A stretch of 40,417 nt of DNA from positions 1 to 40,417 of IMG/VR virus record IMGVR_UViG_3300036376_000002; one strand, written 5' to 3'. The stretch is from a virus. Its lineage: Duplodnaviria; Caudoviricetes. Positions 1 to 22,347 of the stretch are shown here, one piece after another; position 1 is the stretch's first letter, and every line of letters begins with the position of its first letter. Position numbers and translations under genes: made by a program. A model generated the notes under the pieces. It ran no database searches. It was not told the origin of the DNA and worked only from the letters and a program-made list of their open reading frames with translations.

Positions 1-50
1 CCGCGCAAGCTGAGCACGTCACAGCGGCTGACTGCGGACAATCGCGGCTC

Positions 51-127
51 TGGTGTGCCCGAGAGGATTCGAACCTCCGGCCCCCGGATTAGGAATCCGA
101 TGCTCTATCCTGCTGAGCTACGGGCAC
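51..127 (-). tRNA. tRNA-Arg (anticodon CCT), intact, CCA encoded
   Basis: Reverse complement reads GTGCCCGTAGCTCAGCAGGATAGAGCATCGGATTCCTAATCCGGGGGCCGGAGGTTCGAATCCTCTCGGGCACACCA: acceptor stem, D-arm, TTCCTAA anticodon loop, GTTCGAATC T-loop, CCA. Confidence 0.97.
89..127 (+). repeat. attL, 39-bp identity block (5' half of the tRNA through the anticodon loop)
   Basis: TTAGGAATCCGATGCTCTATCCTGCTGAGCTACGGGCAC, identical to 40291-40329. Confidence 0.95.
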
Positions 128-159
128 ACTGGCGAAAACCGCTGGTTTCCTGCGCTTTG

Positions 160-188
160 CGGATAAGGGGCGCGGCGCTGGCCGTCAA
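160..188 (-). promoter_or_regulatory. Phage-borne sigma70-type promoter upstream of the restored tRNA
   Basis: Minus strand TTGACG (188-183), 17-nt spacer, TATCCG (165-160), ending about 33 nt upstream of the tRNA 5' end; resembles the host promoter at 40350-40379. Confidence 0.6.
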
Positions 189-225
189 CTGAAACGGAAC
201 ATCGCGGCAACCAGCGGCAAGGAAT

Positions 226-254
226 GGCACACTGGCGGCACATTCCACGGCACA
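226..254 (+). repeat. Putative integrase arm-type sites (GGCACA x3)
   Basis: GGCACA at 226, 237 and 249 (11-12 bp period); the same motif recurs twice inside the right end at 40232 and 40244. Confidence 0.55.
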
Positions 255-368
255 CTAGCGCGCCACGATCGCGGCTTGGCAGCGGCCGAACCAGGACTCA
301 CAGTTTCCCCGACCAAACGGCTCAGCTGCGAGTTGAGCCGACAATTTATGCAAACGCACAAACCGAAT

Positions 369-665
369 TTATTGTCAGGGTATGCGCGGGGATGACCTAA
401 CCTTTCTAACAATGGCGGTTTTCTGCGGGTTTGCGACCTAACTTTTGACCTAACCTCGACCTAACCAGATTAGGTTCAACTGACCTAATCTTCTCGGATG
501 CTGAAACCCGCAGAAATCCTAGGGATTAGGTCAAGCGGAGAAAAATGTTAGGTCAAGGTTAGGTGCCCGACCTAATCTTTTTTCATATATTAATCAGCGC
601 CTTAGTACGAGAAACCCCTCCAGATTAGGAATGTTAGGTCATCCCCGCGCACCCCTCCACAATAA
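369..665. repeat. Palindromic iteron array (GACCTAAY), candidate replication origin
   Basis: GACCTAAY forward at 394, 435, 447, 458, 482, 569 and reverse at 525, 547, 633, plus 3 near-copies; 42-bp imperfect terminal inverted repeat (369-410/624-665) with a perfect 19-bp core (383-401/633-651); internal 13-bp IR 420-432/504-516; AT-rich patch near 576-594. Confidence 0.7.
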
Positions 666-832
666 GCGCCGGCACTACGTGAAAAATCTTCCGCGCCCAG
701 CGCATGGGCGGCCGCATCGCGTCGCATTGATCTGCGTAGCGAACTCCTTGCCCCGCGCTGCGCGCAAGGCAGCAGCCTAGGCCGGGCCGAGGGAACCACC
801 CTCCTGCGTCCCCAGATCACAAAGAGCGAGCA

Positions 833-855
833 GGCGAGGCGTGGGGGCGAGCGCG
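833..855 (+). other. Putative P2-like cos site
   Basis: GGCGAGGCGTGGGGGCGAGCGC resembles the P2 cohesive end GGCGAGGCGGGGAAAGCAC, with the same position and orientation relative to the leftward portal gene. Confidence 0.65.
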
Positions 856-887
856 GCGCGCCGGGTCAAGATGGGGTCCTCGCCGTA

Positions 888-902
888 GTTCGTGCTTTGT
901 TC
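888..902 (+). promoter_or_regulatory. Alphaproteobacterial LexA (SOS) box
   Basis: GTTCGTGCTTTGTTC = GTTC-N7-GTTC, 33 nt upstream of ATG 936. Confidence 0.7.
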
Positions 903-935
903 CATAGAGTGGCCTCCGAATCGGCGGAGGATGAG

Positions 936-1271
936 ATGAGATGGACCAAGGAGGGGCAGCGGATCCCGACCACGGTCTTCGAAGCGGCGCTACATCACGA
1001 GCCCGTTCGCGCGACCTGCTGTCGCTGCGGGCGGGTCGCAATTTTCGATCCACATCAGCTGTGGTGGTTGTTTCATCGCCGCGGATGGGACGATCGGTTG
1101 ATTGCAGTCGGCCGGCGGTTCCGCTGCTCAAGCCTGCTTCCACCCAACGACCGCGCGTGCCGGTCCCGCGCGTCGATCGATCTGGCGCGTTTCGGCACGG
1201 CGGCGACGACCAGTCTGCCTTGGCCTCCAGAACTTGAGTGGAAACGCGCGACTCGCCGTGTGCGCTCATAG
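936..1271 (+). CDS. Cys/Trp-rich hypothetical protein (111 aa), probably SOS-induced, putative Zn-binding
   Basis: GGAGG RBS at 926-930 before ATG 936; CCRCG plus later FRC...AC; LexA box upstream. Confidence 0.7.
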   Translation: MRWTKEGQRIPTTVFEAALHHEPVRATCCRCGRVAIFDPHQLWWLFHRRGWDDRLIAVGRRFRCSSLLPPNDRACRSRASIDLARFGTAATTSLPWPPELEWKRATRRVRS

Positions 1272-1365
1272 CTTCCTTCGGAGGAGCCCTCGCGATCTCG
1301 CAGGCAGCAAGCCATCGCCAGCATTTTATTACCACTTGCATTAATATACTTCGTGTTATATATAT

Positions 1366-1917
1366 ATGCCGCTGGCCAAGTTGAGCCAGCAACGAAGGAG
1401 TAAGCATCATGATTTGCCATTTCAAAGAACCGCCGCCGCTCGTCGCCCACGGCACAGCGACTCCGCCCGGCAACTTCAAGTAACCCCAGGGATGCCCATT
1501 TTCGTGCCCGCTTTGGCACGAGCTAACCAAAACATTGCCGATTGTAAGGTCGGCTTTGAGGAGTCGAAGAACTATGATGTTTCAGGATCCCCCAAGGGGA
1601 CGAACGACGCCAACAACCCACGGAGTATAGACCGACTGATCGGTCCGTTTTCTCTGAGGTTGTTGGCTTCCATCCAGAGATTGGGAGACCGCGCATGGGG
1701 TGCAAACCTCCAGCGGGATCTCAGTGAGATGCTCGGACGGGATGTAGCCATTGGTCAGTTATACACAGCTTTGTCTAAGCTGACTGATCAGGGGCTGATT
1801 TCCTTCTGGCAAACAGATCCAGAGCCTGTTCAAGGTGGCCGCTCAAAGAAAGTCTTCCGTCTGGAAGCGTTGGGCGCTCAGGCTTTGGAAAGTGCGGCCA
1901 CCGAATTGAGTGCCTGA
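1366..1917 (+). CDS. PadR-family winged-helix transcriptional regulator (start uncertain; domain begins near 1636)
   Basis: LIGPFSLRLLASIQRLGDRAWG...GRDVAIGQLYTALSKLTDQGLI...GGRSKKVFRL follows the short PadR pattern; AT-rich promoter-like tract at 1336-1364. Confidence 0.8.
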   Translation: MPLAKLSQQRRSKHHDLPFQRTAAARRPRHSDSARQLQVTPGMPIFVPALARANQNIADCKVGFEESKNYDVSGSPKGTNDANNPRSIDRLIGPFSLRLLASIQRLGDRAWGANLQRDLSEMLGRDVAIGQLYTALSKLTDQGLISFWQTDPEPVQGGRSKKVFRLEALGAQALESAATELSA

Positions 1918-1946
1918 CGCTCCCCACGCAACGGGAGTGAGTCAGA

Positions 1947-2201
1947 ATGAGTGCGAAGAAGAAGGGCCAGCTGGACGGTCAGGCGCGCGAGCCACCAAAG
2001 TTCATGAGATTTACAGCCTGGGCTGCAGGCGGTGCTTTCAAGGACGATGCGCTCAACGCGTTTGATGAGTTATTCCGGTCAGCGGTGTCAAAATTCGGCT
2101 ACCGATATGCCCTGTTGTGGGGCCTGAGCCAATGCTTGAGGAATGTTCCCCGCGCTATATGGGACTTCTTCATAAGGCTGGCCAGATCGTTTTTTCTGTA
2201 G
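1947..2201 (+). CDS. Small amphipathic protein (84 aa) resembling the 'permease prefix' domain that accompanies PadR regulators
   Basis: PP...F.E.F......G...A..W..SQ.L pattern; directly downstream of padR on the same strand. Confidence 0.6.
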   Translation: MSAKKKGQLDGQAREPPKFMRFTAWAAGGAFKDDALNAFDELFRSAVSKFGYRYALLWGLSQCLRNVPRAIWDFFIRLARSFFL

Positions 2202-2310
2202 CCTACAAAAGAGTTTAGCGGGAGGAAGTGCGGGCTTTCTCCCGCATCTCTTGTTTCTGCCTAATCCATGCATGCCCCCGTCGCCGGCGCGCCGACGCAA
2301 GGGAAACCGG

Positions 2311-3312
2311 TCAGGCGGGCACCTCATAGGGATCGAAGTCGACAGCGGTGACGCCGAGCGCATCGTTGATCGCCATGAATACCCGCTGCAGGGGCACGAT
2401 CTCGTGCAGCCAGAACATCTTCGCCGCATCGGTCACGCTGCCGAAGCCACCGCTGTTGGTCGGCACCACGCCGAGCAGCTGGGGCGGCACCCGGTGCGCG
2501 GCGAGAATATCGTCGCGGCTGCAGTTCTTGATGCTCATGAATTCGTCGCGAGCGGCGACTTCGCTCACCGGGATGATCTGGACCCCGTCCTTCTTGCCCT
2601 TGGGGATGTGGAGATAGAGGTTGCGGAAATTGCCCGGCCCCTTCGCCTGTCGCAGCGCCTCGCGGATCTTGTTGCTGTCCTTGTCCTGCAGGCCCTCTTC
2701 GTTGATGTAGAGGATGAAGCCGGCGTGGCTCCCGTTGAGGTAATAGCGCCGGCGAAAGATCGTCGCGGCCTCATTGAGCAGGCCCGACTGCAGCGCGGCG
2801 TACCATTCGGGCACACCATAGATCTCCTGCATGAGGTCCGGCTCGAGCAGGTGGATCACCGATCCCTTGCGGAACTCATGATCGTCCTTGCCCGGCTGCA
2901 GATAGAAAAAGCTGCCGGGCTCGGTGCCGACGCGGGTATGGATCGCCGGCGACGGCTTAAGCTCGAGCGGGCGGCCCGCCAGATTGTCGATCCGCTCGAG
3001 ATAGCCGTTGCCGGTGGCCAGATAGTCGGTGACCATCCGCGCGAACGCCGCCCGGGTCAGCAGCCGCGATGGCCGGAAGCTGGAGGCGAGCATGTTGCGC
3101 TTCAGGATGATGGCGCTGCTGTGGTGCGCGGACATCCGGTGCGCCTTGACCAGGCCGACCATCGAGATCGGCGGCGCGTAATATTTTCCGTTGTGCACGG
3201 CCTCGAGCATCAGCAGCCATTCGCTGCGATCGATCACGCTTTCCGGCTCGCCGAAGGTGAACGACTCCCACGTCAGCTCGCCGGCGGCGGCATTGTCGAC
3301 CTGATCCGACAT
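2311..3312 (-). CDS. Q: Phage portal protein (PBSX/P2 gpQ family)
   Basis: HHSSAIILKRN, QEIYGVPEW, RRYYLNGSHAGFI, GPGNFRNL, AAHRVPPQLLG; ATG overlaps the terminase stop (TGATG). Confidence 0.95.
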   Translation of the reverse strand: MSDQVDNAAAGELTWESFTFGEPESVIDRSEWLLMLEAVHNGKYYAPPISMVGLVKAHRMSAHHSSAIILKRNMLASSFRPSRLLTRAAFARMVTDYLATGNGYLERIDNLAGRPLELKPSPAIHTRVGTEPGSFFYLQPGKDDHEFRKGSVIHLLEPDLMQEIYGVPEWYAALQSGLLNEAATIFRRRYYLNGSHAGFILYINEEGLQDKDSNKIREALRQAKGPGNFRNLYLHIPKGKKDGVQIIPVSEVAARDEFMSIKNCSRDDILAAHRVPPQLLGVVPTNSGGFGSVTDAAKMFWLHEIVPLQRVFMAINDALGVTAVDFDPYEVPA

Positions 3313-5156
3313 CAGAAAATCTCCATGGTGCTTTCCCCCGCCAGCGTCGGGTCGAGGGCTTCGTTGAAAAGGACGTGCATCGTCGCCCACGCCAGATCGG
3401 CGTGGCCGGTGCCGCCGCCGCGGCCGGCGACATAGGTGACGGACTTGCCGCCGCGGGTGACCTTGGGGTGGATGGCGATGAAGCTGGACATCAGCTCCTG
3501 CCACTCGGCGGGGAACTGCAGGCGCCCGTCTGAGATCACCTTCTTGGCCTTGTAGACCATCATCGCCTTGACCTCGGCGGAATAGGTGATGGCTCGGGCC
3601 AACGGGAAGAATTTGACCACCAGGCTGTAGACCGCGCTGCCGACACCGGTGGTGTCGATCGCGATGTGCGTCACATTGTAGCGCGCACAGATCGCCCTGA
3701 TGATGTCGGCCTGCTCCTGATAGTCGCGGCCGCGCAGCCGCTTCTTTTCGAGCAGGCGGAACTTGCCACCGGGCGTCGCCGGCGGCGCGGCGACGATCAG
3801 ACCGGCATCGTCGCCGGTGCCGCTCTCCCCGTTCGGGTCATAGCCCAGCCACACCTCGCCGTCGCCGAACGGACGCGCGGCATAGGCGTTGAAGTCCTGC
3901 CACTGGGTGAAGGCGTCGACCGCGCAGCGCCGCATCAGCTCCATCGGGAAGGTCGACTGGCTGTCGTCGAGGAAGCGGCACAGGAACAGCAAGTCGAATT
4001 CGTCGGCCGAATGCTCGAAGCGCAGCTCCTCGAGGTCGACCAGGTCGAAGCCACCCTCGATCGCGTCGTCGATGGTGACGATGTGCCGCCAGATCCTGTC
4101 GCCGCCCTCGGCGCCATGCTTCAGGGCCTCGTGGCCGATGTCGATCTTGACCCGATCGGCCTTGGCGCGGCGGCGATTGAACTTGTCGCCGCTCCACATC
4201 GGATAGGCCTCGTGGGCCAGCACGCTCGGCGTCGAGAAATAGGTCCGGCGGTACCGCTTGTGGGTCGCCATCGCCTGCGCGACCTTGTTGAGCTGCTCGA
4301 ACCCGAAGATCCAGAAGGCCTCGTCGACATAGATGTCGCCGTGATATCCCTGCGCTGTCCGGAAGTTGGTGCCCAGAAAGTGCATTTCGAACGGCGGCAG
4401 CTGGTTGCCGGCGTCGTCGGTACCGCGCTGGATGACCAGCGGATTGCCGCGCAGTGTGATTCCGAGCTCGGCCTGCACCCACTCGATGATATACTGGCGG
4501 AAGATGTTGGCCTGGTTGCGGCTCGCCGACAGGAAAATCTGGTTGTTGCCGGTCTCCAGCCCGTGGATCAGCGCCTCGCGGGCGAAATACCATGTCGCGC
4601 CGATCTGCCGGGACTTCAGGATAAAGCGGGTGCGGCGGCTGACATTGGCCCACCACGTCTCCTGATGCGCGAAGTTCGCCGCGAGGAACGCCGCCTTGAG
4701 GGTGGCCAGCCCGTCGGCATCGATCAGGTTCTTGGCCTTGCTCTTCTTTTCCTTGACCTCGGGGCTGTTGCGATTGGCCACCTTGGGGTTGAGGTCGACC
4801 TCATTGCCGCCCCGCATATATTTGCCGATACGCGCCAGTCGCTCGAACTGCCGCATCAGCAGATCGATCTCCTTGAAGTCGCTGCCGCTCTTGCGCTCCT
4901 TGGCGATCAGCATCGCCAACCGGCAGTCGAGATGGTCCTCGACCCGCTCGACACTGCTGGCGGCGTCCCACTTGTCGCGCGACTTCCAGCTGCTCACCGT
5001 GCTGATCGGCAGATCCAGCTCCTCGCTGATCTGCCCGACGGTCCATCCCTGCCAGTAAAGCGATCGCGCGCGCCGCCGCGCATCCACCGGCGTCACTGCA
5101 GGCGGACGGATGGCAGTCGCCGTCTCGGGCGGGTCGAAGGGCGGCGCAGCGCTCAT
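3312..5156 (-). CDS. P: Terminase ATPase subunit
   Basis: N-terminal ARSLYWQGW HTH, LKSRQIGATWYFAREA, YVDEAFW Walker B, GHADLAWA nuclease end. Confidence 0.95.
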   Translation of the reverse strand: MSAAPPFDPPETATAIRPPAVTPVDARRRARSLYWQGWTVGQISEELDLPISTVSSWKSRDKWDAASSVERVEDHLDCRLAMLIAKERKSGSDFKEIDLLMRQFERLARIGKYMRGGNEVDLNPKVANRNSPEVKEKKSKAKNLIDADGLATLKAAFLAANFAHQETWWANVSRRTRFILKSRQIGATWYFAREALIHGLETGNNQIFLSASRNQANIFRQYIIEWVQAELGITLRGNPLVIQRGTDDAGNQLPPFEMHFLGTNFRTAQGYHGDIYVDEAFWIFGFEQLNKVAQAMATHKRYRRTYFSTPSVLAHEAYPMWSGDKFNRRRAKADRVKIDIGHEALKHGAEGGDRIWRHIVTIDDAIEGGFDLVDLEELRFEHSADEFDLLFLCRFLDDSQSTFPMELMRRCAVDAFTQWQDFNAYAARPFGDGEVWLGYDPNGESGTGDDAGLIVAAPPATPGGKFRLLEKKRLRGRDYQEQADIIRAICARYNVTHIAIDTTGVGSAVYSLVVKFFPLARAITYSAEVKAMMVYKAKKVISDGRLQFPAEWQELMSSFIAIHPKVTRGGKSVTYVAGRGGGTGHADLAWATMHVLFNEALDPTLAGESTMEIF

Positions 5157-5202
5157 GGTGGCGCACGCTAGGGGAGATCGGCGGCACCGGCCCCTGCCCC
5201 TT

Positions 5203-5227
5203 CCTTGTAACGCGCACCGTTACAAGG
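5203..5227. promoter_or_regulatory. Late-promoter activator (Ogr-type) palindrome between divergent P and O
   Basis: CCTTGTAACGCGCACCGTTACAAGG (TGT-N13-ACA); recurs at 11679 and 21907. Confidence 0.8.
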
Positions 5228-5316
5228 TCGCGGCGTTGCGGTGCCGCGCATCTTCATGCCCTCACTCCCGCCAGACACCGGTGCCGATGGTGCCACGGTC
5301 AAATCGGGAGCTTTTC

Positions 5317-6198
5317 ATGGCCAAGTCCAAGTTTTTCCGCGTCGCCGTCGAAGGCGCTACCGTCGATGGCCGCACGATCGACCGCAAATGGCTCGAGGAG
5401 ATGGCGGCAACCTATGACCCCAAGACCTATGCGGCCCGGGTCAACCTCGAACATATCCGTGGAATCACGGCCGATCCGCCCTTCCAGTCGCTCGGCGACG
5501 TGCTCTCCCTGAAAACGCAGGAGATTGATCTCAACGTCGGCGGCAAGACCGAGCGCCGCCTCGCGCTGTTCGCCGAGATCGAGGCGCTCGAACCGCTGGT
5601 GCAGATGAACCGCAAGCGGCAGAAGCTCTACACCTCGATCGAGATCAACCCGTCCTTCTCGAACAGCGGCAAGGCCTATCTGATGGGCCTCGCGGTCACC
5701 GATTCCCCAGCCTCGCTCGGCACCGAGATGCTCGAATTCGCGGCCAAGGCTTCGGTCAATCCCTTCGCCGCCCGCAAGCAGCAGCCGGGCAACTATTTCT
5801 CGGCGGCCGAGGAAGTTACCATCGAGCTGGTCGATGGTGCGCCCGAGGCGGACCCTACCGGCGTCTTCGGCGCGTTCAAGGCAATGCTCGAGCGCTTTAC
5901 CCCGTCGGCGCCGCCGGCCCCGGCGGTGCAGACCGCACCAACCCCGCAGGGGGATCCTGCGGCTGCTCCGGCGGGCCAGCAGCCCAGCGGTAGTGACTTC
6001 GCCGCCATCGGCATGGGCATCGCCGCCATCGCCGCCGGCATGGAAAAGATGGCCAAGGCCACCAGCGACAGCATCACCGCGCTGGGCGATCGCATCACCG
6101 CGGTCGAGCAGCTGACGTCCACCACGCCGCAGCAGGGCCAGCAGTCCCGCCAGCCCGCGATCGGCATGCCGCAGAATTTCGTCGCCACCGACTGCTGA
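5317..6198 (+). CDS. O: Capsid scaffolding protein/protease
   Basis: MAKSKFFRVAVEGATVDGR, YLMGLAVTDSPASLGTE, C-terminal TDC typical of gpO. Confidence 0.95.
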   Translation: MAKSKFFRVAVEGATVDGRTIDRKWLEEMAATYDPKTYAARVNLEHIRGITADPPFQSLGDVLSLKTQEIDLNVGGKTERRLALFAEIEALEPLVQMNRKRQKLYTSIEINPSFSNSGKAYLMGLAVTDSPASLGTEMLEFAAKASVNPFAARKQQPGNYFSAAEEVTIELVDGAPEADPTGVFGAFKAMLERFTPSAPPAPAVQTAPTPQGDPAAAPAGQQPSGSDFAAIGMGIAAIAAGMEKMAKATSDSITALGDRITAVEQLTSTTPQQGQQSRQPAIGMPQNFVATDC

Positions 6199-6268
6199 CC
6201 CGCGTCGATCCAGCCCAGCCACCCCTCACACCGCTCCGCGCCCGACCTGACCCGACTAGGAAACCGCC

Positions 6269-7318
6269 ATGCAGAACACCACGCGCATCCTCTTCACCGC
6301 CTACGTCTCGCAGATCGCGCTGCTCAATTCAGTGGCGGACGCGACCACCCAATTCACGGTCGCCCCCGTCGTCGAGCAGAAGCTCGAGGAGGTCATCAAG
6401 AACAGCAGCGAGTTCCTGCAGCAGATCAACATCGAGCCGGTGGTCCAGCAGTCCGGGGCCAAGGTCGGTGTTGGCGTCACCCGCACCATGGCTGGGCGCA
6501 CCAATACCGCTGCCGGCCAGCGTCGCACCCCGACCGATCCGACCGACACCAGCGATCGCGGGCTGTATTTCTGCCGCCAGACCAACTTCGACAGCGCGCT
6601 GAAATATGCCAAGATCGACGCGTGGCGGCACCGGCCCGAGTTCCAGACCCTGCTGCGCGACGCCATCGCCAAGCAGCAGGGCCGCGATCGCATCATGATC
6701 GGCTGGCACGGCACCTCGGCCGCCGCTCAGACCGACCGCACCGCCAACCCGCTGCTGCAGGACGTCAACCTTGGCTGGCTGCACAAGATCCGCACCCATG
6801 CCCCGGCACAGGTGCTCGACGATGGCGATCTGTCCGGCGCCGGCAAGGCGATCTATGTCGCGCCCGGTGAAGTCGGCGTCGAGGTCGACTATCGCAATCT
6901 CGATGCGGTGGTGCTCGACGCCAAGTCGCTGATCCCCGAATGGCACCGCGGCCGCACCGACCTGGTGGTCATCGTCGGCCACGATCTCGTTGACGAGAAA
7001 TACTTCAACATCGTCAACGCCACCGGTGACACCGCTACCGAGGTCGAGGCCGCCGATCGCATCCTGCGCTCGGAAAAGCAGCTCGGCGGTCTGCCGGCTG
7101 TCCGCGTGCCCTTCTTCCCGGCCAACGCCATGCTGATCACCACGCTCAGCAACCTGTCCATCTACTATCAGGAAGGCACCCGCCGGCGCTTCATCAAGGA
7201 TGAGCCCGCGCTCGACCAGATCGAGAACTACGAGAGCGTCAACGAGGACTATGTCGTCGAGGACTATGAGCTGACCGCGCTCATCGAAAACATCGTCATC
7301 GGCAAGAAGCCGGCCTGA
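6269..7318 (+). CDS. N: Major capsid protein, P2 family
   Basis: DRIMIGWHG, NPLLQDVNLGWL, ITTLSNLSIYYQ, ENYESVNEDYVVEDY. Confidence 0.96.
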   Translation: MQNTTRILFTAYVSQIALLNSVADATTQFTVAPVVEQKLEEVIKNSSEFLQQINIEPVVQQSGAKVGVGVTRTMAGRTNTAAGQRRTPTDPTDTSDRGLYFCRQTNFDSALKYAKIDAWRHRPEFQTLLRDAIAKQQGRDRIMIGWHGTSAAAQTDRTANPLLQDVNLGWLHKIRTHAPAQVLDDGDLSGAGKAIYVAPGEVGVEVDYRNLDAVVLDAKSLIPEWHRGRTDLVVIVGHDLVDEKYFNIVNATGDTATEVEAADRILRSEKQLGGLPAVRVPFFPANAMLITTLSNLSIYYQEGTRRRFIKDEPALDQIENYESVNEDYVVEDYELTALIENIVIGKKPA

Positions 7319-7481
7319 CCGGGATACACCGAGGGGCTCTGACGGCGGTGTCTGACATCCGGGTCGGTATCGCAACAGCCCAACGCAGAGACCGGGGGGA
7401 CGGGATGCGAAGCATCCTTATCAGCCCCGCCGGTCGCCCGCCGCCGGATCGAGCGGGCACATTTCACAGGAGCCGCTCCGC

Positions 7482-8264
7482 ATGACCAGCCTTGCCCGCC
7501 GCCGCCGCGAATCGATCCTCGCTGCACAACGCGCCACCTCGTCGCTGCCGGCTGCAGCTGGCGATACGGTCGATCTGTCATCCGCCGATGCCGGTCCTGC
7601 TGCCAGCCAGTATCAGCAGCTGCTCGAGCAGCTGGGCGAGGACATGCGCAGCCTGTCCCAGATCCAGTCGGTCGAGCGCAAGATCGAAGCCAAGCGCGCA
7701 ATGGTCGGGCGCTATCAGGCATGGGTGGAAGGCGCGATGCGCGCCGGGCGCGATGGCGCGGCTGCCGAAGACGAGATCGTCACCACCATGCTGGTATGGA
7801 ACATCGACATCGGCAACTGGATCATGGCACTGCAGCTGGCCGTGCATGTGCTGACCCACAATCTGCCGCTGCCCGAGCGCTACAAGCGCACCCCGGCAAC
7901 GCTGATCGCCGAGGAGATCGCCGATCGCGCGCTCGCCGACGTCGGCGCCGTCGACCATGGCACGCTGATCGCCACCGAGCAGGTTACCGCCGGGCACGAC
8001 ATGCCCGACCAGGTGCGCGCCAAGCTGATGAAGGCGCTCGGCCGCAACCTGGTGGCGCAGGCCGATACGTTCGATCCCGACGCGGCAGAGGTTTCCGCCG
8101 GCGGCAAGCCGGCGCTGCTGTCGGCAGCGCTTGAGGCGCTCCGCCGCGCCATGGCGCTCGACGAAAAGGCCGGCGTCAAGAAGGACATCGAGAAGATCGA
8201 GCGCGAGCTCAAGGCGCTCGCCCCAGCAACACCGCCGACGCCTCCGCAGGGTGGCGGCAGTTGA
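7482..8264 (+). CDS. M: Terminase endonuclease (small) subunit
   Basis: IQSVERKIEAKR, HDMPDQVRAKL, GVKKDIEKIER; follows N. Confidence 0.92.
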   Translation: MTSLARRRRESILAAQRATSSLPAAAGDTVDLSSADAGPAASQYQQLLEQLGEDMRSLSQIQSVERKIEAKRAMVGRYQAWVEGAMRAGRDGAAAEDEIVTTMLVWNIDIGNWIMALQLAVHVLTHNLPLPERYKRTPATLIAEEIADRALADVGAVDHGTLIATEQVTAGHDMPDQVRAKLMKALGRNLVAQADTFDPDAAEVSAGGKPALLSAALEALRRAMALDEKAGVKKDIEKIERELKALAPATPPTPPQGGGS

Positions 8265-8366
8265 GGAACGCCCCACGGCGCCGGGGGGGCGGTCACCGGC
8301 ACGGCAGGCCTCGGCCATGTCGCGCACGTTGACCCCACCCCCCCACTTTGATCGGAGAGCAAGCAC

Positions 8367-8843
8367 GTGACCGGCTTCGTTGCCATGCCCCCGCCGCCAC
8401 AGTCGCCCGATGGCGCGACCATCGAGGCGGACGAATGGTTTCCGGGCATCGATGCCAACGCGATGCGCGACAGCATGCAGCTGCGCCTCGATGTGCCGCA
8501 TCCCCGGCTTGTCGCGGCGCTCCACGGCGCGCTGCTGACGGTCACAGGGGACCTTGCCGACTGGAAGGCCACCCATGTCGCTGCCGGTGCCGCAGATCTG
8601 GCCGCGGTCGATCCGGACACCACCATCGACGGCCAGCACCGCCTGACCTTGCTGTTCCTGCGCGCGGTGCGCTTCGCCGCGGCGGCCGAGCTCGCCGATC
8701 TCGCCCGGGATTCGGCTGCCACGCAGGAAGCCGTCGACCGCCTCGCCGACGAACTCAGCACCGCCGCCGAGATGCGCCGCGTGTCGATCGCCGCCATCCG
8801 CGACATGCTCAAGGTGACCCGCGTCGCCGTGGAGCTGATCTGA
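8367..8843 (+). CDS. L: Head completion/stabilization protein
   Basis: DEWFPGID...AIRDMLKVTRVAVELI; synteny. Confidence 0.85.
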   Translation: MTGFVAMPPPPQSPDGATIEADEWFPGIDANAMRDSMQLRLDVPHPRLVAALHGALLTVTGDLADWKATHVAAGAADLAAVDPDTTIDGQHRLTLLFLRAVRFAAAAELADLARDSAATQEAVDRLADELSTAAEMRRVSIAAIRDMLKVTRVAVELI

Positions 8844-9061
8844 TGGCTGAGGCACCGCTCGCTACGACCGCTCTCGCCGGGGAAACGCTCGACGCGCTGT
8901 GCTGGCGCGTCCTTGGCCGCACCGACGGCGTCGTCGAGCAGGCCCTCGCCCTCAACCCCGCACATGCCGCCAGCGTCATCCTGCCCGAGGGTGCCGCCAT
9001 CCTGTTGCCGTCCTCGATCGTCGCCGCACCGGCCATCGAGACGGTCCAGCTGTGGAACTGA
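8843..9061 (+). CDS. X: Tail protein X (LysM-like)
   Basis: GETLDALCWRVLGRT...LNP...VQLWN; TGATG coupling to L. Confidence 0.9.
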   Translation: MAEAPLATTALAGETLDALCWRVLGRTDGVVEQALALNPAHAASVILPEGAAILLPSSIVAAPAIETVQLWN

Positions 9062-9066
9062 TACCG

Positions 9067-9447
9067 ATGACTGACTGGCGCGAATTCATGCTCTGGTGGA
9101 CCTTCTCGATCCTCGCTGCCGCGACCGTCGTCGGCGCGAAGCTGGGCATGCTGCTGTTCGCGATGGCACCCGACCCGCCTGCGGAGCCGGAGCTTGCCGC
9201 CCACTGGCGTCGCCGGCGGCGCTGGCTGGTCTATGCCGAGCTGTCGGCCCTGCCGGCCTTTGCCACCATCGCCGTCACCCTGACCGCGCACGGCAACCTC
9301 GAGCCGATCATGTCGGTGCTGCTGTCGATGGGCTTGGGCGGCGTCGGATTCGTGCTGCTGCTGGACGCCGTCCAGTGGCTGTTCCGCAAGCGCATCGGCA
9401 TGCCGCAGCCGATCGCTCCGCCCGATGGTGGAGAGCCCCATGCCTGA
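9067..9447 (+). CDS. Putative holin (126 aa, about 3 transmembrane segments)
   Basis: Hydrophobic segments, basic RRRRR loop, first gene after X where P2 places its holin. Confidence 0.6.
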   Translation: MTDWREFMLWWTFSILAAATVVGAKLGMLLFAMAPDPPAEPELAAHWRRRRRWLVYAELSALPAFATIAVTLTAHGNLEPIMSVLLSMGLGGVGFVLLLDAVQWLFRKRIGMPQPIAPPDGGEPHA

Positions 9448-9592
9448 CCTGGTCCTGATCCTCGTCGCCCTGTCGACCGCCTTCGCCCTGTTCGCGGGCC
9501 TGAAGGCGGTCTGGCACAACAGCCGGCTGCGCGCCGGCGGGCAGGAGCCGCTGGGCACCTTCCGTAACCTTGTCGATCGCCAGAGGAGATAG
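9440..9592 (+). CDS. Small single-TM lysis-cassette protein (50 aa)
   Basis: Read by hand: MPDLVLILVALSTAFALFAGLKAVWHNSRLRAGG...; overlaps the holin end and carries the RBS of the next gene. Confidence 0.55.
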   Translation: MPDLVLILVALSTAFALFAGLKAVWHNSRLRAGGQEPLGTFRNLVDRQRR

Positions 9593-9594
9593 CG

Positions 9595-9978
9595 ATGTGG
9601 ACCTATGACCAGTCGAGCGGCGAGCTGCGCAACGCCAAAGGCCAGCTGGTATCGACCGGCTACAGCGGCCATGGCCGCGGCAAGAACAATCCCGCGCTGC
9701 AGGGCGTCAAGGGCGTCGGGCCGATCCCGCGCGGCCGCTGGCGCATGCAGTCGATCTACGACAGCAAGAACGTTGGGCCACGCGCGATCACGCTCTGGTC
9801 GCTCGACGATCCGACGATCGACGATCGCCACGAGGCAACCGGTCGCAGCGCCTTCCGCATTCATGGCGACAGCGTCCGTGCGCCCGGCACCGGATCACGC
9901 GGCTGCATCATCCTGCCTCGCGCTGTCCGCGTCGCCATGTGGGCCTCTGGCGATCGCGAGATCGAGGTCATCGCGTGA
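9595..9978 (+). CDS. DUF2778/Tlde1-like L,D-transpeptidase-fold protein, putative endolysin
   Basis: GYSGHG..KNNP......GVGPIPRG and catalytic-type FRIHG...SRGCI; occupies the endolysin slot; GAGGAG RBS. Confidence 0.8.
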   Translation: MWTYDQSSGELRNAKGQLVSTGYSGHGRGKNNPALQGVKGVGPIPRGRWRMQSIYDSKNVGPRAITLWSLDDPTIDDRHEATGRSAFRIHGDSVRAPGTGSRGCIILPRAVRVAMWASGDREIEVIA

Positions 9979-10097
9979 GCGAGCCACGCAACCACGAATC
10001 GTGGCCGCTCGACCTGATGCGACAGGCGGCGCTGCCGTTCATCGTGGCGCTGATCATGCTCGGCCTGCTGCTCAACTGGTTCGTCCGCACCAACTGA
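9975..10097 (+). CDS. Small single-TM protein (40 aa)
   Basis: Read by hand: GTG start overlapping the previous TGA; ...AALPFIVALIMLGLLLNWFVRTN. Confidence 0.5.
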   Translation: MSEPRNHESWPLDLMRQAALPFIVALIMLGLLLNWFVRTN

Positions 10098-10109
10098 AGG
10101 GAATCCGCC

Positions 10110-10478
10110 ATGCTTCTTCGAATTGCCATCCTGTCCATCATTGCCTTGCTGATGACCGGCTGCGCGGGGATCGGCGGGATCGCCGCCGGCATCCCGCCCA
10201 GCCCCGCCGCGGCGGCCGACCAGACCACGCTCGATGAGCGCGGAGCGATCGCCGTCGAGATCGCCTATCAGGCGGCAGCACGCGCGGTCGAGGCGTTGAC
10301 CGATGCCGGTCTTATCGAGGGTGCCGCTGCCACGCGCGTCGCAGAAGTCGACCGCAAGGCCTTTGCCGCCGTGCAGGCCGCGCGAACGGCGTATGACGCC
10401 GGCAATTCAGCCAGCTACGCCGAGGCCTTGGCCAAGGCCCGATCCGAGATCGCCGCCCTGCTGCGATTGATCACCTAG
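10110..10478 (+). CDS. Lipoprotein in the lysis cassette (spanin-like candidate)
   Basis: Signal peptide with lipobox LMTG-C, Ala-rich helical body. Confidence 0.7.
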   Translation: MLLRIAILSIIALLMTGCAGIGGIAAGIPPSPAAAADQTTLDERGAIAVEIAYQAAARAVEALTDAGLIEGAAATRVAEVDRKAFAAVQAARTAYDAGNSASYAEALAKARSEIAALLRLIT

Positions 10479-10488
10479 GGAGCAAGCC

Positions 10489-10698
10489 ATGAGCCTCAAC
10501 CAGATTCTCGAGATCCTGCGCAGCGGCGCCGATGCCGCCCACGCCTTTCGTCAGCTGTTCGATCTGGCGGTCACCACCTTCAGCGAAGCCGACCAGGCCA
10601 AGCTCAAGGCCGCCTATGCCGAAGCGCGCATCGCCAGCGACGCGGCGCATGACCGCCTGCAGGACAAGCTCGCCGACGCGGCCAGTCGCCCGGCCTGA
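10489..10698 (+). CDS. Hypothetical helical protein (69 aa)
   Basis: GGGAG RBS, coupled to R by TGATG. Confidence 0.7.
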   Translation: MSLNQILEILRSGADAAHAFRQLFDLAVTTFSEADQAKLKAAYAEARIASDAAHDRLQDKLADAASRPA

Positions 10699-11180
10699 TG
10701 CTCAAGCCTGACGCGCTCCGCACCCACATCACCGCGGCGCTTCCGGATCTCGCGCGGGATCCGGAGCGTCTGCGGATGTGGATCGATCGCGGATCGATCC
10801 GCTCGCGCCAGACCGCCTCGCTCGCCTTCCAATATGGCTATCGCCTCAATGTGGTGGTGCTCGACTGGACGCTGTCGCCGTCGATCATCTTCATCCTGCT
10901 GGTCGACTGGCTCCGCCGTCACCAGCCCGACCTCGTCGCCAGCCAGTCGGCGCCCGGCTTCACCTTCGAGGCCGACATCATTGACACGCGCACCATGGAC
11001 CTGTCGATCGAGCTTGACCTCACCGAGACCGTGTCGACCGTCCCCCGCGCCGGCGGCGGCTTCGACCTGCAGCATCATGCCGAGCCTGTCCCGATGTTCC
11101 CCGACGATGTCGAGCTTGCTCCGGCGCTGACCGAGCTGTGGCTCGGCGCCGATCGCATCCTCCCCGGCCCTGCCGTCTGA
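10698..11180 (+). CDS. R: Tail completion protein R
   Basis: MLKPDALR...DPERLRMWIDRG...WLRRHQPD...DLSIELDLTE. Confidence 0.9.
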   Translation: MLKPDALRTHITAALPDLARDPERLRMWIDRGSIRSRQTASLAFQYGYRLNVVVLDWTLSPSIIFILLVDWLRRHQPDLVASQSAPGFTFEADIIDTRTMDLSIELDLTETVSTVPRAGGGFDLQHHAEPVPMFPDDVELAPALTELWLGADRILPGPAV

Positions 11181-11190
11181 CCCGCTACCG

Positions 11191-11661
11191 GTGGCCGACG
11201 ATTTCTCCCGTCTCGAGCCGTGGATCATGGGTCTGGCGGCGCGCCTGTCGCCGGCAGCGCGGCGCGGCCTTGCGCTGCGCATCGGCCGCATCATGAGCCA
11301 GAGCAATGCCGAGCGGGTCGCCGCCAATATCCAGCCCGATGGCAGCGCCATGGAGCCGCGCAAGCTCCGCACGCGCCGCGACGGCCAGCGGGTGCGCAAG
11401 AAGGGGCGCATGTTCCGGAAAATCGCGCTCGCCCGCAACATGAAGATCGATGCGCAAGCAGAGGGCGTGGCCGTCAGCTTCGTCGGCGACGTGCGCAAAA
11501 CTGCGGAGATCCATCACTTCGGCCTGCGCGACCGTGTCGCCCGCTTCCGCGGCGCGCCAGAGGTCCAGTATCCCGCCCGCCGCCTAATGGGCTTCGGCGA
11601 GGATGACCCGGACGCCATCATGCAGGCCGTGCTCGACCATCTGCAGCGCTCCGGTCTCTGA
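11191..11661 (+). CDS. S: Virion morphogenesis / tail completion protein S
   Basis: NIQPDGSAMEPRK, IHHFGLRDRV, YPARRLMGF. Confidence 0.9.
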   Translation: MADDFSRLEPWIMGLAARLSPAARRGLALRIGRIMSQSNAERVAANIQPDGSAMEPRKLRTRRDGQRVRKKGRMFRKIALARNMKIDAQAEGVAVSFVGDVRKTAEIHHFGLRDRVARFRGAPEVQYPARRLMGFGEDDPDAIMQAVLDHLQRSGL

Positions 11662-11678
11662 CCTGGTCCGCCCGCTCC

Positions 11679-11703
11679 CCTTGTAACGGTGCGTGTTACA
11701 AGG
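11679..11703. promoter_or_regulatory. Late-promoter activator palindrome upstream of J
   Basis: CCTTGTAACGGTGCGTGTTACAAGG; its reverse complement differs from the 5203 copy at one position. Confidence 0.8.
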
Positions 11704-11811
11704 GCCGACCGTTGCGCGCGCGGTGTGCCCGCCGACAACCGCCACTATGCCCGCCAGCATCGCCTCCTCGACGGCACTACCGCCAGCGCTTGCGCTGGGG
11801 GAAGGTAGTAT

Positions 11812-12726
11812 ATGACCGGATCGATTGCTTCCTCGACAGCAATCGACCTGTCCCGCCTGCCCGCGCCGCAGATCATCGACCAGCGCGGCTTCGAGGCGAT
11901 CCTCTCGGATCTGCAGGCAGAGCTGCTTGCCCGCTTCCCGGCCTACTCTGCGGCGCTGGAATCGGACCCGGTCCAGAAGATCCTCGAGATCTCGGCCTAT
12001 CGCGAGCTGGTGCTGCGCGCCGACTTCAACCTGCGCGCGCGCGGCACGCTGATCGCCTATGCCACCGGCGCGGATCTCGACAATCTCGCCGCCCTCTATG
12101 CGGTCGAGCGGCTCGTGCTGGTACCGGCCAACCCGGCCACCGGCGCAGCTGCGGTGCTCGAGTCCGACGATGCCCTGCGCGCCCGGGTGCTGCTCGCGCC
12201 CGACAGCTTCACCGTCGCCGGCCCCGCCAGTGCCTATGTCTTCCACGCCCTGTCGGCCTCGGGCGACGTCCTCGATGCGTCCGCGATCTCGCCCGAGCCG
12301 GGCGAAGTGGTCGTGTCGCTGCTGGCGCGGCCGACCGAGGCCCAGCCATCGGGCGCAGCCTCGCCCGAACTGGTCAGCCTGGTCGAAGCCGCGCTGTCGG
12401 CCGATACCGTGCGCCCGCTTACCGATCTGGTGACCGTCCAGTCGGCCACAATCACCGCCTTTTCGGTGGTGGCCCGGCTGCACATCTTCGCCGGGCCCGA
12501 TCGCAATCTCATCCTCGCCACTGCCATCGCCAACCTGCAGGCATGGCTCGATGAAAATCGCCGCCTCGGTCGCGACGTGCCGCGTAGTGCCCTCATCGCC
12601 GCGCTTCACGCCGGCGGCGTCCAGCGGGTCAACCTGATCGCGCCTGCAGAGGACCTGGTCTTCGATGCGACGGCGGCAGGCTGGGCGGAAGAGATCGACG
12701 TGGCGATCGCGGGCATCGACGAATGA
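11812..12726 (+). CDS. J: Baseplate assembly protein J
   Basis: IDLSRLPAP, ESDDALRAR, AGPASAYVFHA, VRPLTD. Confidence 0.93.
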   Translation: MTGSIASSTAIDLSRLPAPQIIDQRGFEAILSDLQAELLARFPAYSAALESDPVQKILEISAYRELVLRADFNLRARGTLIAYATGADLDNLAALYAVERLVLVPANPATGAAAVLESDDALRARVLLAPDSFTVAGPASAYVFHALSASGDVLDASAISPEPGEVVVSLLARPTEAQPSGAASPELVSLVEAALSADTVRPLTDLVTVQSATITAFSVVARLHIFAGPDRNLILATAIANLQAWLDENRRLGRDVPRSALIAALHAGGVQRVNLIAPAEDLVFDATAAGWAEEIDVAIAGIDE

Positions 12727-13364
12727 CCGGCGTCGCCACGCTCCTCCCGCCGCTCGCAACGCCGCACGAGCGTGCGCTCGAGCAGGCCATTGCCAAGACC
12801 TTCGACATCGATGTCGAGATCGCCAAGCTGTGGAATCCGCTCACCTGCCCGGCTTCGCTGCTGCCATGGCTGGCGTGGGGCCTGTCAATCGATCTCTGGG
12901 ATGCCGACTGGAGTGAGGCGACCAAGCGCGCGGCGATCGCCGATGCCATCCCCTTTCAGCAGCGCAAGGGCACCCGGGCCTCGCTGCGCACCGTGCTCGA
13001 TCGCTTCGACCCGCTGATCGAGATCGTCGAATGGTTCGAAGCCAACCCGCGCATGCAGCCGCACACCTTCAGGCTCGAACTGCCCCTGCCATCACAGAGC
13101 GCCGTCACCTACGACGAAGCATTGGTCGCGGCGCTGCTGCGCGACATCGCTGCCGTCAAGCCGGTGCGATCGCACATGCAGGCGGTCTTCAGCTTGCGCG
13201 CCCAGACCGGGGCATCGCTCGCCGCCGCCGCGCAGACCTCGGTCTTCGCCCGCTTCGACGCGGGCGTCGATACCGACATCGAGCCTGACTGGCTGACCTA
13301 TCTGCAGACCGAGATCGGCGAGCCGATCCTTGCCGAAGCCGGCACCTTTCTGGAGCCAATCTGA
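12723..13364 (+). CDS. I: Baseplate/tail protein I
   Basis: LWNPLTCPASLLPWLAW, KGT, IVEWFE, KPVRSH. Confidence 0.92.
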   Translation: MTGVATLLPPLATPHERALEQAIAKTFDIDVEIAKLWNPLTCPASLLPWLAWGLSIDLWDADWSEATKRAAIADAIPFQQRKGTRASLRTVLDRFDPLIEIVEWFEANPRMQPHTFRLELPLPSQSAVTYDEALVAALLRDIAAVKPVRSHMQAVFSLRAQTGASLAAAAQTSVFARFDAGVDTDIEPDWLTYLQTEIGEPILAEAGTFLEPI

Positions 13365-14437
13365 TGCCGACCATCCAGCTCACTGTCACCAGCGCCGGCC
13401 TCGATGCACTGGTCGATGCCCAGAACGGCGTCACCGACGCGATCGTCGTTGCCGAGCTCGGCCTCGCCTCCGCCAGCTTCACCGCCGCACCGACGCTCGA
13501 GGCCCTGCCCAACGAGTTCAAGCGCATCGATGCTATCGCCGGCACGTCCGTCTCTGAAAACATGATCCACATGGTCGCGCAGGATTCGTCGAGCGATGTC
13601 TATGCGGTCTACGGCATCGGCCTGTTCCTCTCGGACGGCACGCTCTTCGCCAGCTACGCGCAGGAAGAGCCGATCGTGATGAAAGTCTCCATCGCGTCCT
13701 TCCTGATCGCCTTCGACATCGCCTTCTTGGGCGCAGTCGACGTCGCCATCGAGTTCGGCGATGCCAGCTTCATCTATCCGCCGGCGACCGAGACCATCAA
13801 GGGCGTGGCCGAGCTCGCCACCGACGCCGAGGCCGACGCCGGCGTCGACGATCAGCGCATCATGACGCCAAAGAAGGTCAAGCGCGTGCTCGATGCGCTT
13901 GGCGCCGCGCTGACCGCGGCACAGGCTGCATTTCAGGCGGCAGTCACGGCGTCACAGGTGGCCTTTGAGGCAGCGGTCAACGGCACCCTCGCCGCCCTGC
14001 AAGCGCGCACCATCACCGGCGGCGGACTCGTGACCGGCGGCGGGGACCTGACCGCCAACCGGGTGCTCACCGTCGCCAAGGCCACCAACGCCGACTTCGA
14101 GGCAGGAATCGGCGACGGCGTCATCACCGCGGAATTGCTCGCCAGCCTGCCGCGCGTCGCCTCGCAGATCGGCGGCGCAACCATCCCCGGCACCGGAGGC
14201 CTGATCATCCGGCATGGCCGCTTTACCTGCGTCGCCAATGGCTCGGTCGCGGTCACCTTCGTCCCGGCCTTTCCCAACGAATGCTACGAGGTGGTCATCT
14301 CCGGCGGCACCAGCGATCCGGGCGCGCAGGACAATTTCGTCAACCTGGTGTCGTCGAGCGTCAGCCAGACCGGCTTTTCCGCCTCGAACGGCCGCGGCTT
14401 CACCTATTCCTGCCACTATATCGCCGTGGGGCGCTGA
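13364..14437 (+). CDS. H: Tail fibre protein (short, 357 aa)
   Basis: N-terminal baseplate-anchor region (GLFLSDGTLFA), ATETIKGVAELAT repeat, C-terminal GLIIRHG...FPNEC...YIAVGR. Confidence 0.85.
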   Translation: MPTIQLTVTSAGLDALVDAQNGVTDAIVVAELGLASASFTAAPTLEALPNEFKRIDAIAGTSVSENMIHMVAQDSSSDVYAVYGIGLFLSDGTLFASYAQEEPIVMKVSIASFLIAFDIAFLGAVDVAIEFGDASFIYPPATETIKGVAELATDAEADAGVDDQRIMTPKKVKRVLDALGAALTAAQAAFQAAVTASQVAFEAAVNGTLAALQARTITGGGLVTGGGDLTANRVLTVAKATNADFEAGIGDGVITAELLASLPRVASQIGGATIPGTGGLIIRHGRFTCVANGSVAVTFVPAFPNECYEVVISGGTSDPGAQDNFVNLVSSSVSQTGFSASNGRGFTYSCHYIAVGR

Positions 14438-14439
14438 TC

Positions 14440-14871
14440 ATGCAGCTGTATTTCGACCCTGCCACCAACGGCCTGCTCGACCCTGCCATCCACGCGATTC
14501 CGGCCAATGCCACCCGGATCGCGCCGGCGCGGCTCGCCGAGATCGTCGCGGCCATGGCAGCCGGTGCCGAGCTGGTCGCCGATGCGCAGGGGCGTCCTCG
14601 CCTCAAGCGCCCGTCGACCGAACAGCAGCGCGCCGCGACGATCGCCGGGATCCGCGCCGAGGCCCAGCGCCGGATCCTCGCCGTCTCGCCGCTCTGGCGA
14701 CAGATGAACGATCTGCGCGCGCCGGATGCCCCGGCAGCGACCCAGCGCTTCGCCGCGATCGATGCCATCCGCGCGGCCTCGACCCTGATCGAGCGCGACG
14801 CCGCCGAGACATCGACCGATGCGCTCGCCGCCTTCCCGATCGCCAACCACCCGCTGTGGCCGGAGGATTGA
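14440..14871 (+). CDS. Tail fibre assembly-like protein
   Basis: MQLYFDPATNG...IP......ADAQGRP N-terminus, C-terminal WP; follows H. Confidence 0.7.
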   Translation: MQLYFDPATNGLLDPAIHAIPANATRIAPARLAEIVAAMAAGAELVADAQGRPRLKRPSTEQQRAATIAGIRAEAQRRILAVSPLWRQMNDLRAPDAPAATQRFAAIDAIRAASTLIERDAAETSTDALAAFPIANHPLWPED

Positions 14872-14875
14872 GTCC

Positions 14876-17536: not shown

Positions 17537-17547
17537 GGAGCAGCGCA

Positions 17548-17871
17548 ATGGACACCGCACAGATCGCCGCCCTGCAGGCCGAGCTGCAGGAGCAAGGCTG
17601 GTACGAGGACTTTCGCGATTGCGACGGCGACCTTGGCCCGTTCACGCTGGCCGCGCTGATGTGCCGGCATCAGGGGCAGGCGCTGGGCGCGCCGGGCCGT
17701 CGCCTTGCCCGCGTGGCCTGTGAAGCCGCAATGGACAATGGCTGGAACGCCGCCCAGCTGGTCGCCTTCGTGCCATCGCTGGTGGCTGCGCTGGTCGACG
17801 GCCGCACATGGGATGGCAGGCCGGAGGACCAGGGCCTGTGCGCCGCGCTGATCGCCTACGGACTCGCCTGA
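17548..17871 (+). CDS. Hypothetical protein with a peptidoglycan-binding-like motif (107 aa)
   Basis: ALQAELQEQGWY....DGDLGPFTLAAL resembles PG_binding_1; GGGAG RBS. Confidence 0.6.
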   Translation: MDTAQIAALQAELQEQGWYEDFRDCDGDLGPFTLAALMCRHQGQALGAPGRRLARVACEAAMDNGWNAAQLVAFVPSLVAALVDGRTWDGRPEDQGLCAALIAYGLA

Positions 17872-17872
17872 C

Positions 17873-18406
17873 GTGCCACGCGTCAACGATGAGGCGCCTA
17901 TCGACCCGTCCGAGCTGATCCGGCTCGGCACCGTGTCCGCTGTGGATCTGGCTGCCGGCACCTGCACGGTCGACGTCGGCGACATCGTCACCCCCGCCAT
18001 CCCATGGATCGAGCCGCGCATGGGCGCCACCCGCACCTGGTCGCCGCCAACGGTGGGCGAGCAGGTGCTTCTCATCTGTCCGGAGAGCGAGCTCGGTCTA
18101 GCAGTGGCCTTGCGCGGCATCCCGTCCGACACCTTCCCCATCGCCGGCGACAGCCTCGAGGAGCTGATCGAATTCAGCGACGGCGCACGCATCGCCTATG
18201 ACCCGGAATCGCACCGCCTCACCGCCAGGCTACCAGTTCGCTCGACGGTACACATCACCGCGGAAACGGTAAGCATCAACGGAAATCTTTTGGTCGATGG
18301 GACCGTGACTGCAAGCATGGATGTTATAGGTGCCGGACACTCGCTGACAGGCCACTGCCATTCCGCCACCCAACCAGGCGCTGGGCAAAGCGGACCCCCG
18401 CTTTAA
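17873..18406 (+). CDS. V: Baseplate spike protein V
   Basis: LIRLGTV, WSPPTVGEQV, FSDGARIAYD, C-terminal HxH (GHCH). Confidence 0.92.
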   Translation: MPRVNDEAPIDPSELIRLGTVSAVDLAAGTCTVDVGDIVTPAIPWIEPRMGATRTWSPPTVGEQVLLICPESELGLAVALRGIPSDTFPIAGDSLEELIEFSDGARIAYDPESHRLTARLPVRSTVHITAETVSINGNLLVDGTVTASMDVIGAGHSLTGHCHSATQPGAGQSGPPL

Positions 18407-18602
18407 ATCAGCGACGACCGACACGTGTCAGACATCAAGTGCAACGGTCGATAATCCTCCTAGGCGGCACCTTGCCGAACGAAACCGACCGTGTAAGAAT
18501 GGTTGGCTCTAGCGCCACTCCAAACTGGTATCGTGTACGACCAACGCGTTAGACTAGTTTCGACACGGGTGACGTACTATCGATTCGAGGCAGGAAAATA
18601 TC

Positions 18603-22328: not shown

Positions 22329-22347
22329 TCCGCAGGAAGGACTCATC

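Follow-up and report, generated by a model that had tools for sequence, protein, structure and literature searches.

The DNA analysed here, referred to as the window, is a virus sequence of 40,417 nt (IMG/VR record IMGVR_UViG_3300036376_000002; Duplodnaviria, Caudoviricetes). A whole temperate phage spans the window and is flanked on both sides by short host DNA (Table 1). A PHROGs scan of 56 ORFs, including some overlapping shadow ORFs without match, identified genes for portal, terminase, scaffold, capsid, contractile tail, cI/cro/cII, primase, excisionase and integrase, and Pfam revealed an Ogr/Delta finger domain (PF04606). P2-type head genes, contractile-tail modules and the Ogr/Delta activator are all present, and we take the prophage to be P2-like from its gene order.

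Table 1. Features of the attachment regions and of the element between them
Feature	Position	Strand	Basis or remark
Host DNA downstream of the tRNA	1..50	-	joined to the tRNA on the X2 and X8 empty-site contigs
Rebuilt intact tRNA-Arg(CCT)	51..127	-	ARAGORN; the phage attP gives the 5' half, the host the 3' half
att core copy 1, 39 bp	89..127	-	exact repeat
P2-like prophage	128..40290		between the two att copies; PHROGs and Pfam
Phage-supplied leader, 32 nt past the -10 hexamer	128..159	-	short dyad (hairpin) in fold; weak IHF-like match
Predicted sigma70-type promoter, TTGACG (188-183), 17 nt, TATCCG (165-160)	160..188	-	host-trained matrix, conservation
Conserved TTGCCGC..TGTTCCG block just upstream of the -35	195..210	-	by eye, in nearly all of 32 cassettes
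Three TGTGCC direct repeats, spacing 11-12 nt	226..254	-	likely integrase arm-type sites
Excisionase-like HTH_17 gene	38662..39066	+	phrog_66, PF12728; ORF limits mechanical
Tyrosine integrase	38940..39968	+	PF00589 and PF24624; points towards the displaced 5' fragment
Two TGTGCC repeats, integrase side	40232..40249	-	likely the other attP arm
att core copy 2, displaced 5' half of the original tRNA gene	40291..40329	-	exact repeat; no ARAGORN call
Host DNA upstream of the tRNA	40330..40417	-	adjoins position 127 on empty-site contigs
Predicted original host promoter, TTGACG-18-TACACC	40350..40379	-	matrix score 11.4; now points into the prophage, antisense to the integrase

Several other elements were seen in the prophage. 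A 25-bp near-palindrome is found at 5203-5227, 11679-11703 and 21907-21931, two copies being identical and one inverted with one difference. The three copies precede scaffold/terminase, baseplate and tail genes, and the Ogr/Delta gene lies at 33467-33970. By analogy to P2, these palindromes are presumably activator sites of late promoters. Low-GC cargo genes are located at 18603-21803, 28759-29793, 30794-31786 and 30132-30683. The first encodes a metallophosphoesterase and an nSTAND NTPase domain and matches the PADLOC candidate PDC-S60 (E 3e-94), the last matches PDC-S55 and DUF2939, and the remaining two gave no match in Pfam, PADLOC or PHROGs. Near the att end, a 56-nt imperfect inverted repeat surrounds many ACCTAA(C) repeats in both orientations (369-665); this region may serve in packaging (cos-like) or in replication.

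ARAGORN called a single tRNA gene in the window, the tRNA-Arg(CCT) reading from 127 to 51. The longest exact repeat of the window, 39 bp, spans this tRNA from base 1 up to and including the anticodon loop, just as the initial annotation had described. We infer that the tyrosine integrase exchanges strands within the anticodon loop (89-95); in the related loci that carry a tRNA 5' half (see below), sequence identity stops at the anticodon loop or slightly beyond.

Contigs from 4 of the 15 listed runs were mapped onto positions 1-1500. One contig each from X2 (study P2; 5 differences and 1 gap) and X8 (study P4; 1 difference) spans 1-127, and the depth of contigs is zero across 151-800 in both. 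Past 127, the loose end consists of 30 letters of 40330-40359 according to a comparison by eye, in which the loose ends, listed without record name, were assigned by inference to the long contigs stopping at 127. The empty site, established from contig mapping at the left end, thus has 127 joined to 40330 and is seen in two other studies. Since it joins these positions, everything from 128 onward is phage DNA, and the intact gene is preceded by phage DNA as had been proposed; a host origin of 128-190 is incompatible with both the zero depth and the junction. Both ends of the window comprise exactly 127 nt of core and host DNA (1-127 and 40291-40417). Such ends would fit a branch in a k=127 assembly if the source sample also contained the empty site, which might then reflect excision or a phage-free strain. 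Because the tRNA is identical across 77 nt to the empty-site tRNA (L171) of G234, a genome taken from the family of the Sphingobium MAG G001, the host is most likely a sphingomonad. At the empty sites of relatives, a DUF1178 gene (Pfam) ends 35-75 nt ahead of the tRNA (4 loci).

The phage DNA next to the rebuilt tRNA belongs to a cassette with a constant order in related elements: two to four TGTG(A/C/T)C repeats are followed by a T(T/G)CCGC..TGTTCCG block, and then come TTGAC-17-TA, a leader and the tRNA half. The TGTGCC-type repeats, two to four in number, occupy the same place in most related cassettes and, judged by the anatomy of other tyrosine-integrase attP sites, are likely integrase arm sites. 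The TGTTCCG block is possibly a degenerate arm site or an upstream promoter element. In the integrase itself, R195, H276, R279, H302 and Y311 are invariant across 43 aligned relatives. A candidate IHF site in the leader was discarded: it matches 7 of 9 positions of the IHF consensus, versus 6 of 9 in three control segments, which is too weak for a claim.

To score the promoter-like element we derived a matrix from the host upstream regions of 30 empty sites, namely L171-L200 without L198 (left out as phage-type) and L187 (no match), plus L164 and L272. All 30 sites have the form TTG-17/18-TA, with a spacer of 17 nt in 27 and a leader of 8-12 nt in 29; TTG/TA motifs served as seeds for the fit, which chose the best site in each region and so favours such letters, and the 30/30 is partly by construction. 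This bias is controlled for by shuffles and by a pattern-blind -10 count only. The element at 188 scored 12.8, within the host range of 11.2-20.9 and beyond chance (p=0.005, 1000 shuffles), and ranked fifth among the 55 sites scoring above 8 in the whole window. The promoter read here in the initial annotation is thus more than a chance resemblance. Transcription is predicted to start near 153.

The predicted phage and host promoters have the -35 hexamer and the TA in common, while the spacers (17 vs 18 nt) consist of unrelated letters and the leaders measure 32 and 20 nt, respectively. The -35 begins 61 nt ahead of the tRNA at the phage site and 50 nt ahead of the displaced tRNA fragment at the host site, whose TTGACG-18-TACAC form also occurs at the empty sites L185 and L192. 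The two promoters are of one class and not copies of each other. The earlier description of the phage element as closely mimicking the host promoter is therefore too strong.

A generic E. coli-type sigma70 scan picked up neither the 188 nor the 40379 promoter, because it requires a T at the last -10 position. None of the 30 host sites behind the matrix has this T, so we do not count the miss against the promoter. Alphaproteobacterial promoters are commonly without a -7T (PMC7703639). With a TTG-type -35, a 17-nt spacer and a TA-led -10 lacking the -7T, the element displays the features of alphaproteobacterial housekeeping sigma70 promoters, and it is probably of this type.

We then turned to the integrase family. 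A search of viral contigs with the single integrase gave no match; an alignment query did find relatives. The clade comprises 29 distinct integrase loci with at least 38% identity, after removal of 5 duplicates, and 8 of them have less than 100 nt of downstream DNA. A tRNA 5' half lies on the strand opposite to the integrase in 19 of the 21 informative loci, with tRNA-Arg(CCT) as target in 12 cases, Arg(TCT) in four, Pro(TGG) in two and Thr(TGT) in one. The 5'-half polarity described in the initial annotation is supported by this survey. The other two informative members, L083 and L027, have a 3' half. In the tree, L083 falls in a supported branch among 5'-half members, so that the polarity of att appears able to flip within the clade; we do not derive an order of events from the tree. 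L083 (44% identity) carries an ordinary 3' half of tRNA-Arg(TCT) at 4027-4073, on the integrase's own strand.

Two of the 12 Arg(CCT) loci, L004 and L006, have a whole tRNA and not a half next to the integrase (L004, 4148-4224; L006, 4148-4224, G005). G005 contains whole tRNAs at both ends of the element, with differing 3' halves. It seems from this arrangement that the attP of the G005 phage carries both tRNA halves, which would give rise to two hybrid tRNA genes upon integration.

The layout of the window recurs in four other lysogens that have both ends on one contig (G001, G218, G417 and G005): the ends are 38-40 kb apart and the cassette precedes the far, intact tRNA. Elements of this kind are uncommon. 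Among 401 genomes searched, the integrase was found at E<=1e-55 in 5 and the phage-type cassette in 4. The cassette pattern had given six matches, two of which (G087 and G129) proved to be host-type and were dropped. Two single cassettes are of note. The clade member L356 (PP496355.1) has an unannotated attP cassette with a tRNA-Pro(TGG) 5' half at ~3561-3700 and an integrase with 42% identity; the record was deposited as a Microcystis phage, unlike the named relatives of the integrase, which are from sphingomonads or other Pseudomonadota. L364 (G225:C1:560573-560674) is a cassette in attP form, with 5' half and arm repeats, 82 kb from an intact tRNA, and no integrase match was present in the 8 kb examined.

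How well is the promoter conserved? Phage flanks were selected solely by the presence of at least two TGTG(A/C/T)C repeats, from searches that contained no letters of the phage promoter. In 15 of 15 distinct arm-defined flanks, some of which are nearly identical (L206/L254), the best site was T(T/G)G-17-TA, and 14 of them scored above shuffles at p<0.05. Among these flanks, the mean pairwise identity was 0.88 for the -35 versus 0.29 for the spacer. A pattern with fixed -35 and free -10 retrieved 56 loci, or 47 once duplicates and the window's own contig had been dropped. A TA exactly 17 nt past the -35 was present in 28 of 31 Arg(CCT/TCT) loci compared to 2 of 16 loci at other tRNAs (L202 and L203 were left out of the comparison that gave these counts and the cassette alignment scores below). 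Integrase-side controls scored below the upstream side in 18 of 19 loci, L205 being the exception, and the two Pro(TGG) attP cassettes scored low (6.3 and 7.5). The -35 mostly starts 50 or 59-62 nt ahead of the tRNA (44 nt in two cases), and these two main distances are about one helical turn apart. The phage leader mostly measures 20-33 nt past the -10, versus 8-12 nt in 29 of 30 empty sites, likely because DNA of the recombination site has to fit in as well.

Two att copies, an empty site, and a polarity and cassette order that recur across the clade are what we observed, and they can be assembled as follows. The attP of the P2-like prophage carries the 5' half of the host tRNA-Arg(CCT), so that the intact tRNA is preceded by phage DNA with a promoter-like element. 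Entry from the 5' side would sever the tRNA from its own promoter, so that the element would have to bring one along or cost the host the tRNA; the purpose of the promoter would be to maintain tRNA expression. We consider it likely that the conserved element transcribes the rebuilt tRNA constitutively in place of the displaced host promoter. Against this speak the low scores of the Pro(TGG) cassettes, the 3' halves in 2 of 21 clade members and the position of the elements within attP, where protein-binding sites could also fix letters.

It could be argued from the latter point that the letters are conserved as sites for recombination or protein binding in attP and not as a promoter, and that the rebuilt tRNA is either silent or transcribed by read-through from within the prophage, which would be tolerated because tRNA-Arg(CCT) is non-essential. 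The elements do lie inside the att arm region, the generic promoter scan was without match, and argW, the AGG-reading tRNA of E. coli, is dispensable since the UCU tRNA reads AGG (PMC4652775). However, RNA polymerase requires just such an arrangement of TTGAC and TA, with a constant 17-nt spacing and free letters in between, and the host promoters of the same gene share this spacing pattern. Moreover, the relic loci L198 and L349 (see below) are without arm repeats and yet keep TTGAC-17-TA before an intact tRNA. It thus seems improbable that the letters serve as attP sites instead of a promoter.

The relic loci are worth a closer look. In L198 (G318; also L365), the DUF1178 gene ends 96 nt ahead of an intact tRNA, and the gap between them contains a phage-type cassette without arm repeats and, by eye, without a host-type promoter. 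The G318 MAG amounts to only 2.1 Mb, with DUF1178 gene and tRNA on one contig, and neither a second tRNA half nor a clade integrase was found in it. In L082 (G002), a phage-type cassette, likewise without arm repeats, is located between the host gene and the 5' fragment of another prophage. L349 presents, in this order, the host promoter with a 5' half, a 745-nt remnant, the cassette and the intact tRNA. When aligned to arm-bearing phage cassettes and to host upstream regions, these loci scored 24.7 and -5.1 (L198), 49.0 and -4.9 (L082) and 43.0 and -0.9 (L349). L363 (G225) and L346, whose cassettes have no arm repeats either, are weakly phage-type (about 8 vs -2 and 1), and L081, also considered as a captured phage promoter, is unsupported (2.4 vs -1.1). 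On the simplest reading of these sequences, the promoter appears to have outlasted the prophage in three related loci, L198, L082 and L349, which argues that the promoter works. It is possible that a relic cassette is of host and not of phage origin.

The relics also bear on the idea that the promoter serves the free or excised phage, firing through the tRNA half and antisense to the integrase so as to limit re-integration, with the driving of the host tRNA as a by-product. Relatives in attP form were indeed seen in the clade (L003, L007, L009, L017, L019 and L024), and here the promoter is directed at the integrase gene from its 3' side. In the window, the sole terminator-like site on that strand is inside the integrase gene, although at chance level. 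Yet this geometry follows directly from 5'-half integration, which makes a second function needless, and retention before intact tRNAs after prophage decay points to a role for the tRNA. We therefore regard a role in the free phage as very improbable, and a constitutive replacement promoter for the tRNA as the better reading.

The initial annotation had gone one step further and suggested that integration places the tRNA under prophage control and thereby tunes the translation of AGG-containing genes. A regulated promoter of this sort would raise or lower the tRNA, either through a repressor or activator or through Int and host bending proteins that block the promoter during induction. Its -35 is separated by 7 nt from the TGTTCCG block and by ~40 nt from the closest TGTGCC repeat, the leader contains a dyad, and proteins bound to the att arm, within which the promoter lies, could block it. 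Three of the low-GC cargo genes, one of which matches the candidate defence model PDC-S60, are AGG-rich: AGG accounts for 24 of their 140 Arg codons, compared with 19 of 659 in the remaining 27 genes. However, these genes are rich in AGA, too, as predicted by their low GC content. Over the 30 prophage genes, AGG makes up 43 of 799 Arg codons, at the level of 102 host-like ORFs (122 of 2151; 5.4% vs 5.7%), and the integrase has 2 AGG among 38 Arg codons (0-4 AGG in 30 clade integrase stretches), so that neither integrase nor structural genes are enriched. A repressor or activator site was not found: no 8-mer of 128-330 recurs in the cI-cro intergenic DNA, and no copy of the 25-bp palindrome lies near the promoter. 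Furthermore, the spacer is unconserved, the design recurs at Arg(TCT), Pro(TGG) and Thr(TGT) and is hence not specific to AGG, and loss of argW is tolerated in E. coli (PMC4652775). The swap of the host promoter for a predicted phage promoter can be retained from the earlier proposal; prophage control that tunes AGG translation is not supported, and a regulated promoter as such is unlikely.

A broader reading deserves mention, although we hold it to be doubtful as a whole. Prophages of this clade might act both as promoter donors and as switches for a core host tRNA gene: with the promoter located between arm sites and core, the excision complex would shut the tRNA off at induction, and after decay of the prophage the host would keep the phage promoter, as L198 (G318), L082 (G002) and L349 suggest.

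An integrative element in reverse orientation, reported by Zhao and Williams in 2002 (J Bacteriol 184:859) and said to be a cryptic element of Mesorhizobium loti, reportedly supplies the 5' part of its target tRNA gene. The present element differs from it in that it is an apparently whole P2-like prophage. A review citing the same work calls recombination at the 5' side "considerably less frequent" (PMC6563490), and 159 of the 3919 islands found by Islander carry a 5' tDNA fragment (Hudson, Lau and Williams 2015, PMC4383910, Table 1). The polarity is thus not unusual beyond what is known, as had been implied, but belongs to a minority class already on record. The window shares with these islands a tyrosine integrase inside the att-bounded interval, a tRNA 5' fragment upstream of the intact tRNA gene on the same replicon and in the same orientation, and an anticodon-centred site. 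Its interval of 40.2 kb lies in the Islander range of 2-200 kb and near the 39.9-kb prophage peak (PMC4383910). What is traced here across the clade is the promoter-like element and its cassette; no promoter is discussed in the Islander text consulted (PMC4383910).

Some mycobacteriophages with tRNA-dependent lysogeny offset the loss of a host tRNA with a phage tRNA that has its own promoter, as demonstrated with a reporter (PMC10865867). In both cases the phage compensates for a tRNA that the host would otherwise lose on integration. In the mycobacteriophages, however, the core is ~10 bp long and does not restore the tRNA, whose loss is complemented by a separate whole phage tRNA gene (PMC10865867), whereas the 39-bp core of our phage rebuilds the host gene in place; it is thus not a case of tRNA-dependent lysogeny. 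Coliphage Kapi1 integrates into argW, which is the tRNA-Arg(CCU) target of E. coli (PMC4652775), and leaves the gene intact as well, but it duplicates 17 bp of the 3' end and the gene keeps its own 5' side (PMC8787464). Our literature search yielded no description of a phage-supplied tRNA promoter for 5'-half integration; key papers were outside its scope, and we do not claim that such a description is absent.

The layout as such is rare but already known, and what is gained here is detail and not a new kind of element. The prophage illustrates that entry into a tRNA gene from the "wrong" side need not silence the gene, and the clade as a whole reveals the anatomy of the cassette used for this purpose, with arm repeats, a fixed promoter and a tRNA half. 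An integration vector for sphingomonads built on this attP would need the promoter in addition to core and arms. Finally, the relic loci suggest a route by which phage DNA may come to replace the promoter of a housekeeping gene.
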